Shown here piece by piece: positions 1,456-61,696 of a DNA stretch of 64,000 nucleotides. A model generated the notes under the pieces. The model saw nothing but the letters and a program-made list of their open reading frames with translations. It was not told the DNA's origin and made no database searches. Source of the DNA: a virus (lineage: Duplodnaviria; Heunggongvirae; Uroviricota; Caudoviricetes); the IMG/VR virus record IMGVR_UViG_2651869695_000003. The stretch is one strand, 5' to 3'. The translations under genes were made by a program, and so were the position numbers. How positions within the stretch are numbered: the first letter of the stretch is position 1; the number at the start of each line of letters is the position of its first letter.

Positions 1456-2397
1456 TTAGTCTCTGCTAGCGAGCTCATACTGTGCAAGATAGTTCGCGTT
1501 ATCAATTTTAGCAGATATCATCGCCGTTCTGATATCAGAATCGGATGGATAACCGCTTTTGACAATGATTGTCTTTGTACTGACCAATACTTGGTCAAGT
1601 AGACTTTTGGGCGTTCTATTGGATGGCTCTGTTACATCAATTTTTTTAATTTTTAGACCTCCAGAACCTTTTGGAAAAAGTTCAAGTAGTTCCTTAATAG
1701 CATCGGTGACAGAAGTTTTTAGATAGTTAAACCCTTGTTTTTTCGGGCGAATCCGACCTCGCATATTTAATCTTAGATGCGACCCGCCCATACCAACAAC
1801 CATGTCAATAATTTCATTAGCTAAAGGGTTTTTAATCTTATAATTAGCTTTGTTAAAGTTTCTTGGAGCAGCAACTATAAGATCGAAACTACGTAGGATA
1901 TTTCCGTCCTCAAGCAGTTCCTTCATGCTCTCTTGTTTCCAAATGGCTTCAAAAGTGACGCTTTTTAAATCAGTTTTGTTATACAAAATGAATGCCAGAT
2001 CATTTACTTTGGGCCCTATATGGTTGAGGGTCATAGCTAATAAGTCCGTTTCGTAGTAATAGATAAAATATGTTCTTTCAACTACAGAATCTTTATCATT
2101 TAAAGGAATTGTTCTCTCACTACCTGTAGCATCCTCGATGAACGGTAGTAGGCATTCCCTTCTCCACGATACGTAACCAAAGTAACATTGCAGTGTGGTA
2201 TCTTTTTGAAGAATAACTAACTTTAACCCTCGACTTGGGGTGTCTGTTGTGTAAGTTATTGGAAAAGTTACAGTATCTGCTGTGGTCATTTGCTCAAAGG
2301 CTAGTTTTGCAGCAGATGTGCCATATTTTTTGCTTCCATTACCAGTGAAAAAACCAACTCTCACTCGCCTGGTTTTATTCTTATTTTCTGTACTCAT
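1456..2397 (-). CDS. Hypothetical 313-aa protein, candidate RexA-like abortive-infection component
   Basis: Low-GC ORF in moron position between Q and holin; soluble protein followed by 4-TM protein mimics rexA-rexB architecture; similarity to RexA is by eye only. Confidence 0.4.
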   Translation of the reverse strand: MSTENKNKTRRVRVGFFTGNGSKKYGTSAAKLAFEQMTTADTVTFPITYTTDTPSRGLKLVILQKDTTLQCYFGYVSWRRECLLPFIEDATGSERTIPLNDKDSVVERTYFIYYYETDLLAMTLNHIGPKVNDLAFILYNKTDLKSVTFEAIWKQESMKELLEDGNILRSFDLIVAAPRNFNKANYKIKNPLANEIIDMVVGMGGSHLRLNMRGRIRPKKQGFNYLKTSVTDAIKELLELFPKGSGGLKIKKIDVTEPSNRTPKSLLDQVLVSTKTIIVKSGYPSDSDIRTAMISAKIDNANYLAQYELASRD

Positions 2398-2520
2398 TAT
2401 CGATCCGAAATAATTTTAGCAACCGTGTGAAAAATACAACAAAAAAAAGAGGAAATCATTAGCGCGGTCCGCAAAAAACATTGTAATCTGTTAAGAGTGG
2501 TTACTTCGCCACACAGCTTA

Positions 2521-2550
2521 AACCCGCCGTCGAGCGGGTTTTGTCGTTTC
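2521..2550 (+). terminator. Rho-independent terminator-like hairpin, candidate tR' of the late leader
   Basis: AACCCGC-cgtcga-GCGGGTT followed by TTGTCGTTTC, about 145 bp upstream of the holin start. Confidence 0.35.
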
Positions 2551-2693
2551 TGTGGCTGGGGATTCGTTGGTCCTGGCCTATTCCGCAGTTCTCCATCGGT
2601 TCGGCTTCTTTGATGTTTCCGCTTCTGATTTGCGGTACATGATGTTCCCTCAATTTGCACCTGCTGTATCAGCGAGGTGAGAGATAACTACAA

Positions 2694-3020
2694 ATGCCTC
2701 ATAACCCAAATACCTGGCTGGAGTTGGTCCAGAGCTGGTGGCGTGGAGACACACCGCTGGGCGCAGTGATTATGTCGATCGTTATGGCTGGCTTGCGCAT
2801 TGCCTATTTTGGCGGTGGTGGTGGCTGGAAACGAAAAACGCTCGAGATTTTGCTCTGTGGTGCTCTGACGCTGACTTTTGCATCCGCTCTTGAGTATGTC
2901 GGATGGCCTAAATCTCTTTCTGTTGCCATTGGTGGCGGCGTTGGGCTGATCGGGGTCGATGCTATTCGTGGGGCTGCAATGAGAGTAATCGGTAATAAGT
3001 TTGGTGGCTCTAAGGAGTAA
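2694..3020 (+). CDS. Holin
   Basis: 108 aa, hydrophobic segments, first gene of lysis cassette directly before the R-like endolysin. Confidence 0.7.
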   Translation: MPHNPNTWLELVQSWWRGDTPLGAVIMSIVMAGLRIAYFGGGGGWKRKTLEILLCGALTLTFASALEYVGWPKSLSVAIGGGVGLIGVDAIRGAAMRVIGNKFGGSKE

Positions 3021-3023
3021 TTT

Positions 3024-3506
3024 ATGCAGGTACTAAATTCCCAGCGTAAAGCTTTCCTCGATATGGTGGCATGGTCAGAAGGAACGGATAACGGGCGACA
3101 ACCGACACGTAACCACGGTTATGACGTTATTGTCGGAGGTGAACTGTTCACTGATTACTCCGATCACCCTCGCAAACTTGTCACGCTAAACCCGAAACTT
3201 AAATCAACAGCCGCAGGACGTTATCAGCTTCTTTCACGCTGGTGGGATGCTTACCGTAAGCAGCTTGGGCTGAAAGACTTCTCTCCAAAAAGCCAGGATG
3301 CTGTGGCATTGCAGCAGATTAAAGAGCGTGGTGCTTTACCGATGATTGATCGCGGCGATATCCGTCAGGCTATTGATCGTTGCAGCAATATCTGGGCGTC
3401 ATTGCCGGGCGCTGGTTATGGTCAGTTCGAACATAAGGTTGACAGCCTGATTGAAAAATTCAAAGAATCGGGCGGAACGGTCAGAGAAATTCAGCTATAT
3501 GAGTAG
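3024..3506 (+). CDS. R: Endolysin, lambda R-like lytic transglycosylase
   Basis: Near-identical over long stretches to lambda R as recalled ([92 protein letters not shown]). Confidence 0.85.
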
Positions 3507-5239: not shown

Positions 5240-5340
5240 CTCTCAACTGTCTGAGGGGAGGGGCGGGTCACATCCCTGTGACCTGACGTCTTCCGGACTG
5301 CCCGCCCCATCGTTTTTTTATACCCGCGAAAAATGAAATT
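5240..5340. other. Candidate cos / packaging site region
   Basis: GC-rich dyad GGGGCGGG...CCCGCCCC enclosing palindrome GTCACAtcccTGTGAC between HNH and terS. Confidence 0.3.
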
Positions 5341-5358
5341 TAACCAGGAGTGCCGCAT

Positions 5359-5853
5359 ATGGCTGGAACGACGGGGCGTTCCGGGCGTCGCCCCAAGCCA
5401 ACGGCGCGCAAGGCGCTGGCCGGAAATCCCGGCAAGCGAGCCCTGAACAAAGATGAACCTGTTTTTACGCCCATCAAAGGTGTTGAGCCACCGGAGTGGT
5501 TCGCTGAAGAAGATCTCCCTCTCGCCACGATCATGTGGCAACTGACAACCAAAGAACTCTGCGGTCAGGGCCTGCTGTGCGTGACTGACCTCGCGGTGCT
5601 TGAGCGGTGGTGCGTGGCCTACGAGTTCTGGCGACGTGCCGTGAAAAATATTGCCAGACAGGGCAACACCATCACCGGTGCAATGGGCGGTATGGTCAAA
5701 AATCCGGAGCTGACCGCCAAAAAAGAACAGGAGTCCGAGATGAGCAGTACGGGGGCAATGCTCGGACTCGACCCCAGCAGCCGCCAGCGTCTGATTGGCC
5801 TGGCGGGGAAGAAGAAAGCCACTAACCCGTTTCTGAAAATCATCGAATCATGA
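5359..5853 (+). CDS. Terminase small subunit
   Basis: Basic N-terminus, immediately upstream of and overlapping terL; ATG at 5359 with GGAG upstream. Confidence 0.7.
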
Positions 5854-7583
5854 GCCGGAAATCTTACCCCAACGTAAATGCTGCCAATCAGTATGCCCGG
5901 GATGTCGTGCGCGGAAAGATTGTGGCCTGCCAGTTTGTGATTCAGGCCTGCCAGCGCCATCTTGATGACCTGATGGCGGAAAAAAGTAAGTCGTTTCGTT
6001 ACCGCTTCGACAAGGACCTGGCTGAACGGGCCGCCAAATTTATTCAGCTGTTGCCGCACACCAAGGGTGAGTGGGCATTCAAGAGGATGCCCATCACGCT
6101 GGAGCCGTGGCAGCTCTTTGTGATCTGCTGCGCGTTTGGCTGGGTCAATAAAGGCTCCCGGCTGCGCCGCTTCAGGGAGGTGTATACCGAAATCCCCCGT
6201 AAGAACGGCAAATCGGCAATCTCTGCCGGTGTCGCTCTGTATTGTTTTGCCTGTGATAACGAGTTCGGCGCGGAAGTGTATTCCGGTGCCACGACGGAGA
6301 AACAGGCATGGGAAGTCTTTCGCCCGGCGCGACTGATGTGTAAACGCACACCAATGCTGACGGAAGCGTTCGGGATTGAGGTTAACGCCTCAAACATGAA
6401 CCGTCCGGAGGATGGCGCGCGGTTTGAACCGCTGATCGGTAACCCCGGTGATGGTTCATCACCCCACTGTGCGGTGGTGGATGAATATCACGAGCACGCC
6501 ACCGATGCGCTTTACACCACGATGCTTACCGGGATGGGGGCGCGACGTCAGCCACTGATGTGGGCCATTACTACTGCCGGGTACAACATTGAGGGGCCGT
6601 GCTACGACAAGCGGCGGGAAGTTATCGAGATGCTCAACGGGTCGGTGCCTAACGATGAACTGTTCGGGATCATCTATACCGTTGATGAAGGTGACGACTG
6701 GACCGACCCGCAGGTGCTGGAAAAAGCCAATCCAAATATTGGCGTGTCGGTTTATCGCGAATTTTTGTTAAGTCAGCAACAGCGTGCGAAAAATAACGCC
6801 CGTCTGGCAAACGTCTTTAAAACAAAACACCTCAATATCTGGGTGTCGGCGCGTTCGGCGTATTTCAACCTGGTGAGCTGGCAGAGCTGCGAGGATAAAT
6901 CACTGACCCTTGAGCAGTTCGAGGGGCAGCCGTGCATTCTGGCCTTTGACTTGGCGCGTAAACTGGATATGAACAGCATGGCGCGACTTTATACCCGCGA
7001 GATTGACGGTAAAACGCATTACTACAGTGTGGCCCCGCGTTTCTGGGTACCGTATGACACGGTGTACAGCGTCGAGAAAAATGAAGATCGACGGACAGCC
7101 GAACGCTTTCAGAAATGGGTGGAAATGGGCGTTCTGACCGTTACCGATGGTGCGGAAGTGGATTATCGCTACATCCTCGAGGAGGCCAAAGCGGCGAACA
7201 AAATCAGCCCGGTCAGTGAGTCACCCATCGACCCCTTCGGGGCGACCGGGCTGTCACATGACCTTGCTGATGAAGACCTGAACCCCATCACTATCATTCA
7301 GAACTACACCAACATGTCCGATCCGATGAAAGAGCTGGAAGCGGCAATTGAATCGGGGCGCTTTCATCATGATGGCAATCCCATCATGACCTGGTGTATC
7401 GGCAACGTGGTCGGCAAAACCATTCCGGGTAACGATGATGTGGTGAAGCCCGTCAAAGAGCAGGCGGAAAACAAAATCGATGGTGCAGTTGCGCTGATTA
7501 TGGCGGTTGGCAGAGCCATGCTGTACGAGAAAGAAGACACGCTGTCTGACCACATTGAGTCCTATGGGATCCGCTCGCTTTAA
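5850..7583 (+). CDS. Terminase large subunit
   Basis: 577 aa; ATPase-like motifs (RKNGKS, VVDEYHE) and nuclease domain; canonical position. Confidence 0.9.
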
Positions 7584-7594
7584 CTGAGGTAATT

Positions 7595-7777
7595 ATGATC
7601 ATGCTGATTCTCGCGCCTCTGGTGGGCGTGCTGGGGGCGCTTTTGCTGGCGTATGGTGCCTGGCTGATTTATCCCCCGGCGGGGTTTGTTGTTGCCGGGG
7701 CGTTGTGTCTGTTCTGGTCGTGGCTGGTGGCGCGATATCTCGACCGTACACAGTCGTCTGTCGGCGGAGGTAAATAG
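7595..7777 (+). CDS. Small hydrophobic protein
   Basis: 60 aa, two hydrophobic segments, between terL and portal. Confidence 0.4.
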
Positions 7778-23847: not shown

Positions 23848-24506
23848 AATTTCCCAATTCCTAAAATGTGGACATCATCAGCCTTACGGGCATTCCAGGT
23901 GACAATTACATCGGTAGAGTGACGATTAACTGAGATTGCATATGCTTCGTTAGTCGAGCCAGAAACTTTTGTAGCAAACACAGCAAACAGGACACCAAAT
24001 GACTGGGGCCATTTATAGCCTGACAGCTGATAATTACCATTATTCAGTGTTACAGCTTTGGCTGCTGCACTTGATGGAATCGTCAGCCACTGAAGTATCA
24101 ACCCTCCTGGCAAAAGTTGTTTTCCGTAATAATCCCTCACCCCACTAAATGAAGCCATGTCCGGTATCTGATTTTCCCCTGTTCCCACATTTCGTTTTGC
24201 CGCTTCTCCCAAACCAAGGTTTTCGAGAGCCGTTTTCACCGTGCCATCCGATTTGATATCGCTAAACGGATTCTTGCGGCTTAACAGCAGCGCACGAAGC
24301 GCGGTAAGCAGCTGGTCATGCCGCCCCTTCTCCAGGCTGGCACCGGATGCCTCCACCACGCTGCAGAGTTCTTCCTGCAACATATCAAAGTAGTCATCAT
24401 CAAGATCGGTGGCAGGTGTGCCGGTCTGGGGGTTACCACGGGTAAAACCGTTCTTACCCGCGCCGAACTTATCCTTCTGCGCGGTTTTCGTGTCTATACG
24501 ATGCAT
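23844..24506 (-). CDS. Tail fibre protein, variant B (shared N-terminal 102 aa + alternative 118-aa C-terminal domain)
   Basis: Same N-terminus as fibre A, diverging exactly at the gix-like site. Confidence 0.7.
24204..24229. other. gix/hix-like 26-bp recombination site (right, inverted)
   Basis: TTCTCCCAAACC-AA-GGTTTTCGAGAG, reverse complement of the left site. Confidence 0.45.
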
Positions 24507-54993: not shown

Positions 54994-55101
54994 AAATCAG
55001 CACGTACGAATTCAAACTCTGCCATAAAAGAACATATAAGTAATTTATTAACATATAGATATAGGTTATATTACAAATTGAAAAATTATTGGAGAGCAAC
55101 A

Positions 55102-55968
55102 ATGAATCAAAATCCATTCTCATTCTATGACTTTCTTGGATATTTAATACCAGGTGGTTTTTTTATCCTATTAATGTATTTCTGTGGTTTGACATTCGAT
55201 CTAGATATTGTTATTGACTTAAGTGAATTGCTCAGAGGTCAAAGTCAAATCTTTGGCATTTTGAACTACGCTTCAATAGTTATTATATCTTATATAGCTG
55301 GACATTTTATTTCTATCACGTCAGCATTTTTTATCGAAAAATACATGAATAAAGAATTAGGATATCCTTCCAAATATCTATTTAAAAAATTGATAGATAC
55401 CTCAGAAAGCATTTGTAGCCCATCATGCGATGAGAGAAGCGCTGATAAAAAAACAAAAATAAAGAATCGCATAATCAAATGCGTATTATGTCCAATAATA
55501 CTATGGGATTTTATAACACAAAAACTATGTTATTCTCAATCTCTACCATTTCATTTAGCTAATACAACATGGTTAATGATCAAAGAAGGTTATGAGAAAA
55601 AGTTCATAACAAATCGCCAATTATTACAAGATAAAAACGGACTTGATGATGATCTCTTCAGATTGGCATATCATTATGTTTATGAGTTTTCAAAACAACA
55701 TCAAACAAAAATTCAAAACTATGTTGCATTATATGGTTTTTGCAGAAACATATGTTTAATCTTTATAATTTCATTTTGGGTATCAGTTCCAACCTTTATT
55801 TATCGATTATGTACTCATAGTGATTATCTTTATAGTTTACTTTCAATAATGCTTAGCTTTTTCTTCGTCTATGTCTTCTATGTTGGTTTTGTTAAATTTT
55901 ATAGAAGATATACTTTAGAAGTATTAATGGCATTTGCTGTACTTCAAAGTAACGACACTATTCGTTAA
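55102..55968 (+). CDS. AT-rich integral membrane protein (moron, unknown function)
   Basis: Very low GC; hydrophobic helices at both termini; between yfdR-like gene and xis. Confidence 0.45.
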   Translation: MNQNPFSFYDFLGYLIPGGFFILLMYFCGLTFDLDIVIDLSELLRGQSQIFGILNYASIVIISYIAGHFISITSAFFIEKYMNKELGYPSKYLFKKLIDTSESICSPSCDERSADKKTKIKNRIIKCVLCPIILWDFITQKLCYSQSLPFHLANTTWLMIKEGYEKKFITNRQLLQDKNGLDDDLFRLAYHYVYEFSKQHQTKIQNYVALYGFCRNICLIFIISFWVSVPTFIYRLCTHSDYLYSLLSIMLSFFFVYVFYVGFVKFYRRYTLEVLMAFAVLQSNDTIR

Positions 55969-56009: not shown

Positions 56010-56216
56010 ATGCTGAACCTCGATTGTGTTCCTATCTCAACTTATTGCAAAGAAACTGGCGAAACTCCTGAAGCAATAAACAAACGTGTACAGCGCGGTG
56101 TTTGGCGTGAAGGTGTTCAGGTTTTAAAGGTTGAAGGCGTTAAGGAGAGGTGGATTGATCTTAGTGAGGTTGCAAAATGGGCCAGACAAAACTGCTCAAA
56201 CTACCGCGCGGCGTAA
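56010..56216 (+). CDS. xis: Excisionase-like protein
   Basis: Small basic protein overlapping int start. Confidence 0.5.
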   Translation: MLNLDCVPISTYCKETGETPEAINKRVQRGVWREGVQVLKVEGVKERWIDLSEVAKWARQNCSNYRAA

Positions 56217-57352
56217 CAATCAGGAAACACCGCCAGGGAGAAACGATCAATATAACTTTCACCTACAAAGGAGTTAGATGTCGTGAGCCACTTTCCAATC
56301 TGGAAGTAACACCAAAGAACATTAAATACGCCGAGCGTACACTCGGCGAAATCCATAATAAGATCGAAAGGGGAACATTCATTTATGCAGAATATTTTCC
56401 CCGTTCTGCTCGTTTGAAAATTTTTGGTAATGCTGCCACTGGCAAAACGGTAAAAATGTACCTGGACGAATATCTTGAAATCTGCGAAACGAGGAAACTA
56501 TCACCATCCACGATTGGTGGTTATAAAAAATGCCGGAGTGCGTTAGCCTCGCTTCACATTTGCCCTGCAAGTGAATTAACACCAGCAACCCTGAAAGCGT
56601 GGATTCAAAGCCAAAAAACGACCTTAAAAACCATTCGCAACCAGTTATCTTTCCTGCGGTCAGCACTTGATGAAGCCGTAACCGATGGGGTACTTCAAAT
56701 TAATCCCGTATCGTTAGTAACTGCTTCGCGCTACCAAAGTGATAAGTCAGAAGCAGAAAGCAGCTACGTGGTTGATCCGCTATCACCAGCAGAAGTTGAT
56801 GCATTACTAGCAGCAGCCGGAAACAAACAATGGGAGAATCTGTTCCGGTTCGCTATACATACAGGTCTGCGTAGTTCTGAATTATGTGCCCTTCGATGGC
56901 GTGATATTGACTTTGTAGGGATGACTGCCCACGTCCAGAGCGCCAGTGTTGTTGGTGTAATCAAAGGTACCAAAACAAAAGCAGGTACTCGAAAAGTTGA
57001 ACTGACAGATGAAGCAATGTCTGCACTAATAAATCAGAAACCGTTCACTTTCATGAAGGACGCGACTGTCTTTGAAGATCCAAAAACCAATAAACCTTGG
57101 GCCAGCGCAGACGCCATAAGAAAGAAGGCATGGGTGCCAACTTTACGTAAAGCCGGAGTCCGTTACCGTAATCCTTATCAAACTAGACATACATTTGCTA
57201 CAAAACACATTAGTCAAGGTGTTAATTTGTTTTGGTTAGCCGCTCAAATGGGGCATAAAGGACCAGAAATGCTATTTAGGCATTACGGCCGTTATCTTAA
57301 AGATTATGATAACAATAGCACACACAATCATTTGATAAATTGTACTAATTAA
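56177..57352 (+). CDS. int: Tyrosine integrase (phage integrase family)
   Basis: 391 aa; C-terminal catalytic region (RHTFAT, HYGRYL); adjacent to att site. Confidence 0.85.
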   Translation: MGQTKLLKLPRGVTIRKHRQGETINITFTYKGVRCREPLSNLEVTPKNIKYAERTLGEIHNKIERGTFIYAEYFPRSARLKIFGNAATGKTVKMYLDEYLEICETRKLSPSTIGGYKKCRSALASLHICPASELTPATLKAWIQSQKTTLKTIRNQLSFLRSALDEAVTDGVLQINPVSLVTASRYQSDKSEAESSYVVDPLSPAEVDALLAAAGNKQWENLFRFAIHTGLRSSELCALRWRDIDFVGMTAHVQSASVVGVIKGTKTKAGTRKVELTDEAMSALINQKPFTFMKDATVFEDPKTNKPWASADAIRKKAWVPTLRKAGVRYRNPYQTRHTFATKHISQGVNLFWLAAQMGHKGPEMLFRHYGRYLKDYDNNSTHNHLINCTN

Positions 57353-57391
57353 ATGATAATCTCTACTTCTGATTGGAAGTAGAGATTTCAC

Positions 57392-58210
57392 ATGAATAAC
57401 ACAGATTTAATAAAAATGTTAGGTTACTCAATTACCACTACCGACTTCATAGCCATAATAAGTGTCATAATTGCATTTTTTGCAATGTACCAAACATGGC
57501 AGCAAAGAATAATTTCAAACAAACCTCAAATCTTACCTAAGAATATAAAATTCACATGGATGCACAGAGATAACTTGAAATTATTTAAGAACATAGAAAT
57601 ATCACCAACCACTTTGAATATAGAGCTTCTCAACATAGGTCTTGGCCCAGCTATAAAAATAAACCACTACTGGTCTGAAGAGTATGAGAAATATATTAAG
57701 ATAAACAAATTCAAAATAGATAATAACAACACACAAAAATCACATGAGATATTTTTGCAAAATGAAGAGTTTTTTACAATCAAAGACAACAATAACTTCT
57801 TGAATGTTGATATTTTTGGTAGAGGTCCGCAAAAACATAATAGCTTTCAAAAAAAAGGAACTTTGATAGAATTTATAACTCCGAATATTAAAGACAAAGA
57901 GAAAACAACCATACCATTTCCCCCATTGGTGCCGGAATTAATTGGTAATTATCTTGTAACCACCTCCATCTCATCGTTTATAGGGCCGGACCTTATCCTT
58001 GAATATAGAGATGTAAACAATAAGAAAAGAAAGAAAATTTTCACAACAGAATTTAAGAGCGTATCTTTTTACGGAAATGGCTTAGATCTAATTTTAGACA
58101 TAGATATTCTTTTCACATCCAAACAGTGTTGGACACAGGTTGTCCTAGAAAGGATACGCAAAAGCTACGCAGATTTTATGGATGAGCATGATTTTAATAA
58201 AAACAGATAG
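57392..58210 (+). CDS. AT-rich hypothetical protein with N-terminal TM helix (moron between int and attR)
   Basis: 272 aa, Asn/Lys/Ile-rich, very low GC. Confidence 0.45.
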   Translation: MNNTDLIKMLGYSITTTDFIAIISVIIAFFAMYQTWQQRIISNKPQILPKNIKFTWMHRDNLKLFKNIEISPTTLNIELLNIGLGPAIKINHYWSEEYEKYIKINKFKIDNNNTQKSHEIFLQNEEFFTIKDNNNFLNVDIFGRGPQKHNSFQKKGTLIEFITPNIKDKEKTTIPFPPLVPELIGNYLVTTSISSFIGPDLILEYRDVNNKKRKKIFTTEFKSVSFYGNGLDLILDIDILFTSKQCWTQVVLERIRKSYADFMDEHDFNKNR

Positions 58211-58223
58211 TTAAAAAAATTCG

Positions 58224-58263
58224 GACTCGGGTTCAACTCCCGCCAGCTCCACCAAAATTCTCC
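58224..58263 (+). other. ssrA: Partial 3' end of ssrA (tmRNA): prophage attachment site core (attR)
   Basis: TCGGACTCGGGTTCAACTCCCGCCAGCTCCACCA matches the E. coli tmRNA 3' end with one mismatch; upstream sequence is AT-rich phage ORF. Confidence 0.7.
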
Positions 58264-58335: not shown

Positions 58336-58515
58336 GCCTTGAATTTGTCCCGCGAAGTCTGATGCCAACTAATTAAATCCGAACCTTTTAGGCACCTTGT
58401 TAGGCACCTCATAAAGCTTTATTGTTTTTGAGGTGCCTAAAACTATGGAAACCCGGCAATGGCAAGACAAACCAAACCTCTATCCGTTAAAGAAATCGAA
58501 TCTGCTAAACCCAAG

Positions 58516-60460
<1,945 letters not shown>

Positions 60461-61696
60461 AGTGACACCAAGGAAGCGGACTACGTTCTCTATGATGGCG
60501 ATGGCCTTGAGCTACTTATCAAATCCAGCGGGAGTAAAATCTGGCAGTTTCGCTACATTCGCCCTGTCACCAAGAAACGTGCGAAGAAGAGCATAGGCCC
60601 CTACCCGTCAGTTACGCTTGCCGATGCCAGAAACTACCGGGCAGAGTCACGCTCTCTCCTGGCGAAACAAATCGATCCACAGGAACATCAGCAAGAACAA
60701 CTTCGCAGTTCGCTTGAAGCTAAAACCAATACTTTCCAACTCGTGGCTGAACGATGATGGAATGTGAAGAAAGCCAGCGTGACAGAGGACTATGCCGACG
60801 ATATCTGGCGCTCTATTGAAGAGATGTCTTTCCTGCAATTGGCGACGTTAGCGTTACAGATATTAAAGCTCACACACTGGTTCAGGCCGTCCAACCGGTT
60901 CAGGCCAGAGGAGCAAAACCGTTTGTCGCCTGTGCCAGCGCATTAATGAGGTCATGACCTATGCCCAAAACACATGGCTGATTGATGCTGTTCCCAGCGT
61001 TAATATTGGTAAAGCCTTCGAGAAGCCTCAGTAAAAGAACATGCCCAGCATTCGACCGGATCAGCTACCTCAACTGATGCAGACAATGCGAACAGCCAGC
61101 ATTAGCCTTTCCACACGCTGCCTGTTCATGTGGCAACTTCTTACTATTACCCGCCCTGCCGAAGCGGCTGAAGCTCGCTGGGAAGAGATAGACATAGAAG
61201 CACAAGAGTGGAAGATTCCTGCAGCACGCATGAAAACGAACCGCGACCATACTGTTCCATTGTCAGATGAAGCAATTGCGATACTGGAGATGATGAAGCC
61301 GTTAAGTGGAAATCGAGAATTTATCTTTCCCAGCCGCATCAAGCCAAACCAGCCGATGAACAGTCAGACCGTAAACGCATAGCTAAAACGCGCAGGTTTT
61401 GGTGGGGTGCTCGTTTCACACGGCCTGCGATCTATCGCCAGTACAGCCCTTAATGAACAAGGCTTTCCGCCTGATGCCATTGAGGCAGCACTTGCCCATG
61501 TAGACAAGAATGAAGTTCGTCGCTCTTATAACCGCAGCGATTACCTGGAGCAGCGTCGTCCAATGATGCAGTGGTGGACGAATTTTGTTCAAGCGGCAGA
61601 TCGTGGAAGTATTATTGAAGGTGGGATGAAAGGAATGCGATTGGTTGGATAACGATTCACTCTGCCTACGTTATTACAAATAGCGTCCGATTAGAG

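Follow-up and report, generated by a model that had tools for sequence, protein, structure and literature searches.

What does a very AT-rich gene do in the narrow interval between a prophage integrase gene and its attachment site? The 64,000-nucleotide stretch of DNA analysed here (the window) holds a 272-aa open reading frame (ORF), which a preliminary description had placed between int and the right-hand att junction. It is present there and has a GC content of 31% (A 40.7%, T 28.1%, G 14.7%, and C 16.6%), as against 43% in int and 45–50% in the surroundings; the same GC contrast between the ORF and its neighbours was found in seven other loci. The elements that frame the gene are the following.

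57392..58210, + strand: the 272-aa ORF, ATG to TAG, a member of PHROG 7259 and of a large orphan family
56177..57352, + strand: tyrosine integrase (Int), 391 aa, the conserved left flank (Pfam Arm-DNA-bind_2, E 1e-23; Phage_integrase, E 6e-16)
58219..58256, + strand: att core, the 3' end of ssrA (tmRNA), reading AATTCGGACTCGGGTTCAACTCCCGCCAGCTCCACCA; every related locus has this block after the stop codon
58315..58339, + strand: terminator-like site, the intrinsic terminator of the host ssrA, AAGCCCTGCGGGCTT then TTTTGTGCCT

Judged by sequence comparison, the ORF is a real gene under purifying selection. This follows from the chance of finding 272 stop-free codons at its base composition (1.5e-10), from an omega of 0.08–0.25 in comparisons with related loci (Nei-Gojobori method, NG86), and from the size of its family. 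The remaining five frames over the same DNA contain 7–32 stops each. The opposite reading, namely that the frame is spurious or decaying and is open only because it runs through an AT-rich spacer and attP DNA, could appeal to its AT-richness, its lack of annotation, and two disrupted alleles (see below). Against it stand the same chance and omega values, saturated dS, a family of more than 1,500 clusters that spans several phyla, and an AlphaFold2 (AF2) fold that is confident in the core, which together make it so improbable that we regard it as excluded.

The gene is tightly packed into the integration module, with 39 nt between the int stop codon and its start and 8 nt between its own stop codon and the ssrA 3' fragment. 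The gene order is an xis-like small ORF, a 391-aa integrase, a gap of ~40 nt, the family gene, and the ssrA 3' end, and this order is conserved in every enterobacterial member examined, including the plaque-forming phage LLS and 17 IMG/VR contigs. An alignment-based search of genome contigs for related loci confirmed none. Only the int-proximal junction lies in the window; the junction with the intact ssrA is absent from it, and a tRNA/tmRNA scan and an Rfam scan of the window gave no match, only the ssrA 3' fragment being present. In E. coli NZ_CM142663 (L016), which carries the same int-ORF module, the prophage has the intact ssrA at its opposite end. Near the ORF, no terminator was found inside the phage part, and the attP form of L016 has a terminator-like hairpin in the other arm (~23866-23895). 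In a lysogen, the ssrA terminator would end the transcript of the ORF.

Two further features of the window concern its overall structure. Positions 1-22514 and 24202-46715 form a perfect (100%) inverted repeat of 22,514 nt with a 1,687-nt spacer. The arms encompass the complete structural module of the phage (terminase to tail), and the spacer sits where relatives carry an invertible tail-fibre segment with a Pin/Fin invertase. The repeat is either an assembly fold-back at the invertible segment, which is probably the case, or a real inverted duplication; it replaces the ssrA-proximal prophage end, and attL is therefore missing from the window. At that ssrA-proximal end, L016 (NZ_CM142663, 23978-27831) encodes a type II restriction endonuclease, a cytosine methyltransferase, and a GIY-YIG protein beside pinE, so both ends of this prophage type carry cargo. 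On the 3' side of ssrA, a P4/CP4-57-type integrase gene is split by an IS21-family element that lies within 58440-60760 (istB 58582-59316 and istA 59317-60381, minus strand; IstB_IS21, E 7e-109; rve). The N-terminal codons of the split gene are at ~58446-58513, and its Arm-DNA-bind_3 domain resumes at 60434.

Comparison of the related loci revealed a divergent gene body between conserved flanks. Nucleotide identity to the window is 70–90% across xis and int, 20–50% across the ORF body, and 85–93% across the last ~60 nt of the ORF and the att core. Pairwise comparison of 16 related loci gave a median identity of 88% in Int and of 28% in the ORF body, and some pairs of loci are 98% identical in Int yet 25% identical in the ORF. 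Fast positive selection in place was rejected as the cause, given the low omega and a dS that is far above that of int: the ORF values are 1.3–2.8 or saturated, those of int in the same comparisons are 0.1–0.9, and the ratio within the same pairs is ~3–13 wherever dS is estimable. The low omega together with the high dS relative to int indicates, as far as the sequences can be read, that these are old, very divergent alleles, each under purifying selection, which have been moved by recombination between conserved flanks.

Two IMG/VR contigs carry disrupted alleles (L026, ~2560-3381, and L031, ~2270-3096) in which the tail and att DNA are intact and only C-terminal reading frames of 128 aa and 65 aa, respectively, are left. 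We considered whether these are deletions that kept the tail and rejected this, as both loci are full-length and have disrupted frames, with the promoter at its usual distance (~480-680 nt upstream).

The conservation at the end of the gene coincides with elements of the attachment site.

58130..58207, + strand, codons 247-272: C-terminal tail ...RIRKSYADFMDEHDFNKNR, delimited by alignments; nucleotide identity 85-93%
58149..58173, + strand, inside the coding sequence: putative Int arm-type sites, AAAGGATACGCAAA (58149-58162) and a second TACGCA 11 nt on

The tail is near-invariant in enterobacterial alleles that are otherwise 25–30% identical, and it is absent from most of the wider family. 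A search of E. coli genomes with the tail, which is a short query, returned only the three identical alleles. The other attP arm contains the 14-mer AAAGGATACGCAAA again, with its orientation unchanged, at 23833-23846 of L016, ~95 nt past the intact ssrA; a word of this length shared between the arms arose in none of 500 shuffles. Phage LLS likewise has the arm motif in both arms. In one locus (L011) the gene lacks the tail, and the non-coding DNA after its stop codon reads ACGCAGA-N30-CAGTTAGTTA-N6-TTCGGAC, the 46-nt spacing matching that of the window. In another (L036) the ORF ends earlier and the first arm-type site is retained. Since the motif occurs in both arms and an arm-binding integrase is encoded next door, the simplest reading of these sequences is that the repeated motifs are Int arm-type sites, as in a lambda-type attP, and that the last ~20 codons of the ORF are written over them. 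Such overprinting would explain the near-invariant C-terminal tail. The arm sites of attP would then constrain a coding sequence, and a peptide tail would be conserved for reasons that lie at the DNA level, which calls for caution when function is assigned from conservation.

The spacer between int and the ORF contains two overlapping elements.

57332..57360, + strand: sigma-70 promoter-like element, TTGATA-17 nt-GATAAT, with 10/12 consensus matches, the best in the region
57358..57387, + strand: hairpin with a 12-bp stem (57358-57369 / 57376-57387) and a 6-nt loop; MFE -18.4 kcal/mol

The promoter-like element overlaps the last codons and the stop codon of int. Its pattern (TTGxxx, exactly 17 nt, RATAAT) is kept in 19 loci, namely an 18-locus set and L036, and the sequence of the 17-nt spacer varies. 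Six codons before the int stop, the window and 18 other loci all use TTG for Leu, and the surrounding C-terminal residues of Int vary; selection on the -35 hexamer, rather than on the amino acid, would fit this invariant codon. At the sequence level, a conserved promoter of its own is consistent with expression of the gene in the lysogen. H-NS may silence an AT-rich gene.

The -10 element runs into the hairpin, the 3' arm of which carries a Shine-Dalgarno-like GAGA, 4-8 nt before the start codon. In a stem alignment of 15 loci, 93% of the cells are paired, with compensatory changes in nine of the 12 pairs; the covariation score was reached by none of 500 shuffles, and pairing was 42–54% in a control in which the partners were slid by 1–3 columns. 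A role as a classical intrinsic terminator was rejected, as a U-tract follows the hairpin in no locus. The mean probability that the ribosome-binding-site window is unpaired is 0.58 in the transcript from the gene's own promoter, which was assumed to start 7 nt after the -10 element and lacks most of the 5' arm of the hairpin, versus 0.10 in read-through RNA from int. We infer from this folding model a hairpin gate by which the gene would be translated from its own promoter and not from int transcripts. In the lysogen, the promoter would fire and the transcript would start within the 5' arm, leaving the ribosome-binding site open, whereas int read-through RNA would fold the hairpin and the ORF would stay untranslated from it. 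This promoter-plus-hairpin layout could separate the expression of lysogenic cargo from the transcription of int.

Which protein does the gene encode? Its sole named match is PHROG 7259 (function unknown; E 1.3e-35), and the match is full-length (residues 17-272 versus profile positions 13-277 of 277). No match was found among the Pfam (none above cut-off), NCBIfam, and PADLOC models (the defence-family scan used PADLOC-DB v2) or by a sequence-profile search of the PDB, and nine distant family members likewise matched no Pfam, PADLOC, or NCBIfam model. Foldseek found no match to the ORF model in the PDB, and the structure library BFVD returned uncharacterised membrane proteins only. The preliminary description had seen no resemblance to phage core functions; the profile searches (Pfam, PHROG, NCBIfam, and PDB) and Foldseek agree, and they revealed no housekeeping resemblance either. 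No account of the family turned up in literature searches on the protein accession, the PHROG id, and exclusion genes of the int-attP interval.

The family is nevertheless large. A word-indexed search recovered 14 enterobacterial clusters at 23–33% identity and one at 92%, and a profile search of 1.84 billion representatives retrieved 1,538 proteins at E<=1e-3 (737 of them at E<=1e-10), mostly of ~240 aa; the family size of ~1,500 counts clusters at 50% identity. In species-representative genomes, members occur in Alpha-, Beta-, and Gammaproteobacteria, Desulfovibrio, and Bacteroidota. Conserved features are the N-terminal hydrophobic helix, a juxtamembrane QR..S.KPQ/RPEL, NIGLGxA, a Trp, a Pro, and YxDIxG, and the family alignments contain no invariant residue set typical of enzymes. 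AF2 modelling with 42 sequences (pLDDT 77.5) predicted one long helix, a beta-rich domain at residues 47-243 that looks like a generic sandwich, possibly of the Ig-like / CARDB-like type, and a C-terminal helix.

57437..57517, + strand, codons 16-42: single transmembrane helix, then invariant juxtamembrane Q38-R39 (AF2, hydropathy, charge bias, and invariant columns)
57530..58120, + strand, codons 47-243: beta-rich (sandwich) domain with NIGLGxA, the hypervariable part

The N-terminal transmembrane helix of the preliminary description thus reappears as a hydrophobic helix at residues ~16-42 that is also a helix in the AF2 model. In 175 family proteins, the tail before this helix is short, with a median length of 6 residues and roughly one acidic residue; a mean of 3.6 K/R falls within the 15 positions that follow the helix, and 95% of the proteins have more K/R on this side than on the N-terminal one. 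Based on this charge bias and the positive-inside rule, the product is predicted to be a single-pass inner-membrane protein with N-out/C-in topology and a cytoplasmic beta domain. As no catalytic-type residues are conserved, the domain is probably non-enzymatic. A predicted cytoplasmic bulk argues against the type of exclusion that masks receptors in the periplasm.

The suggestion that the int-att interval is a cargo hotspot proved right. Among 5,426 complete E. coli genomes, 407 have the integrase and three have this allele of the ORF, and the same slot is occupied elsewhere by unrelated cassettes and, in prophage e14, by lit together with ymfE and ymfD. The slot of UTI89 (L035, 3665-5535) contains three minus-strand genes, which encode a HATPase_c_2-like protein, a DUF4325 STAS-like protein, and a 199-aa protein; that of HN68 contains a gene for a ParA-like ATPase (a weak match to the PADLOC candidate PDC-M28B) and two other genes; and that of G749 contains two minus-strand genes, one of them with a weak TPR match. 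None of the unrelated cassettes is a known defence system according to PADLOC v2. The slot of TB06052 carries another allele of the family (hhalign E 1e-42). YmfE of e14 was tried as a homologue of the family and rejected (hhalign probability 0.1%). The unrelated cassettes outside UTI89 are located at L037 3927-5849 and L038 3687-4875.

The window contains a second AT-rich ORF (55078-55968, + strand; ~29% GC, 296 aa, probable start 55102), located between a yfdR-like HD phosphatase gene and xis. It shows several hydrophobic segments by eye, occurs in 205/5426 E. coli genomes, and matches PHROG 12528 (E 9e-174) and no Pfam model; a weak PADLOC match is to Csx27, an accessory membrane protein of type VI-B CRISPR systems (E 1.4e-5). 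It is possibly another moron.

No constant partner accompanies the distant family members, which occur as single genes. One follows an AAA_13 ATPase gene among NmeDI, GmrSD, and EcoRI-methylase genes, one comes after IetS, one precedes a PD-T4-6-like kinase gene, and one lies in the accessory block of an Aliarcobacter prophage; many others lie among housekeeping genes without a defence neighbour. The PADLOC neighbour counts are partly false, since the housekeeping PolA matches a DRT model, and the association of distant relatives with defence islands is thus no more than suggestive. Elsewhere, L013 carries two 242-aa ORFs ~1 kb apart (5334-6062 and 7001-7729) beside a Fic gene; they have no Pfam matches and may be tandem paralogues of the family.

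The best explanation for these observations is that the ORF is a moron-type accessory gene in the integration module of an ssrA-integrating, e14/LLS-like lambdoid prophage. Its GC content is unlike that of its neighbours, it has, at the sequence level, a promoter of its own, and it is an add-on that is absent from related phages. The moron concept (Juhala/Hendrix, as given in PMC3594210) is matched by the odd GC content, the own promoter, and the predicted expression apart from the phage operons.

For such a gene, the most likely function, at slightly below an even chance, is the exclusion of phages by a protein that acts at the inner membrane through binding rather than as an enzyme. The cytoplasmic domain would bind a component of the infecting phage at the inner membrane face and thereby block infection, whether at genome entry or through abortive infection, and the allelic diversity would set which phages are excluded. 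The earlier proposal of a superinfection-exclusion or defence gene holds as far as context goes, in that the slot is shared with lit and some relatives lie beside defence genes; it gained nothing from homology, as no known defence or exclusion family matches the product. The overlap with attP, the promoter and covarying hairpin in the spacer, and the large family are absent from the preliminary description. With PADLOC, Pfam, and NCBIfam models all lacking a match, context is the whole source of the defence reading, and an omega below 1, with no signature of positive selection, speaks against exclusion. So do the many distant relatives among housekeeping genes, the disrupted alleles, and the possible silencing of an AT-rich gene by H-NS.

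The same anatomy of promoter, membrane anchor, and accessory status would also suit a lysogenic-conversion factor unrelated to phages, i.e., a membrane-tethered binding protein that alters envelope physiology, stress tolerance, or colonisation and whose allele diversity would reflect adaptation to host or niche. The many distant relatives that are lone chromosomal genes among metabolic genes, as well as the defence models without a match, point in this direction. Yet phage-phage conflict is the more typical setting for extreme allelic diversity beside a conserved integrase and for a slot shared with exclusion- or defence-like cargo, and some relatives do have defence genes as neighbours, so that we consider a conversion factor rather unlikely. 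A sub-case of defence, distinct from entry blocking, would be a lone toxin-like effector of abortive infection, the anchor of which oligomerises and depolarises the membrane once the cytoplasmic domain has detected a phage protein. Known membrane-disrupting effectors are likewise built from a membrane anchor and a small beta domain; the predicted C-in topology and the relative that directly follows an AAA_13 ATPase in a defence island agree with it. A single transmembrane helix with no pore-forming signature, the lack of a conserved partner across loci, and the lack of similarity to any solved effector make such an effector unlikely.

A role in the phage's own cycle that links the gene functionally to int and attP (in integration/excision, lysis, or membrane DNA traffic) would account for the fixed position, the ~40-nt spacing after int, and the overlap with the attP arm in every enterobacterial locus. 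It is quite improbable: phages with the same integrase carry unrelated genes in the slot, prophages retain disrupted alleles, the wider family does without both an integrase and the tail, and a separate promoter argues for expression apart from int. Going beyond phage exclusion by this one protein, the ORF could be the founding example of a widespread family of single-gene, membrane-tethered anti-phage proteins whose hypervariable cytoplasmic beta-sandwich recognises incoming phage components, a broader proposal that we put forward as doubtful. On that proposal, ssrA phages would have hard-wired the gene into their integration module by way of a promoter in the int stop region, the hairpin gate, and the overprinted C-terminus, and transcription of the defence gene would cross the attR arm, where it could couple to Int/Xis binding and excision.

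If the gene does exclude phages, a large unannotated family would join the catalogue of prophage-encoded defences, and its alleles, with the same flanks and bodies that are 25–30% identical, would provide a natural series for mapping specificity. The attP-constrained coding sequence and the promoter-plus-hairpin layout stand independently of the function.

Set against known systems, a prophage moron in an int-att hotspot is familiar; the apparent overprinting of the coding sequence on attP arm sites and the proposed gating of translation by a promoter-embedded hairpin are new, and the family is uncharacterised. In e14, the same int-att junction slot in a related prophage type holds lit (with ymfD and ymfE), whose product excludes T4. 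Lit is a peptidase (its record reads cell death peptidase), and e14 integrates in icd, whereas the prophage of the ORF integrates in ssrA. A true homologue is gene 31 of the Escherichia phage LLS (PQ299149; 26% identity, tblastn E 2e-14), which occupies the same int-gene-attP(ssrA) position in a plaque-forming phage. It differs from the ORF in having another C-terminal tail and a gap to the core that is 20 nt longer. The LLS record annotates the att block as attP / tmRNA pseudogene, and the paper describing the phage gives gene 31 no function.

P22 SieA and lactococcal Sie2009 are prophage-expressed membrane proteins that are encoded near the lysogeny module and block DNA entry (in part after PMC3594210); the ORF product has no detectable homology to them, and its domain is predicted to be cytoplasmic. 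By analogy, the closest functional precedent is gp15 of HK97, a moron product of the inner membrane that prevents genome entry and leaves the surface receptor unmasked (Cumby et al. 2012, summarised in PMC3594210). A sequence link between the two was looked for through the Pfam, PHROG, and PADLOC scans, and none emerged. HK97 gp15 is small and is encoded in the tail operon, whereas the ORF encodes a 272-aa product with a beta-sandwich domain and lies between int and attP. The gp15 moron has its own terminator; the ORF is followed, in the lysogen, by that of the host ssrA. What the two have in common is that each is a prophage add-on with odd GC content, and that each has its own promoter and yields a single-gene inner-membrane product, both of which are predictions in the case of the ORF.
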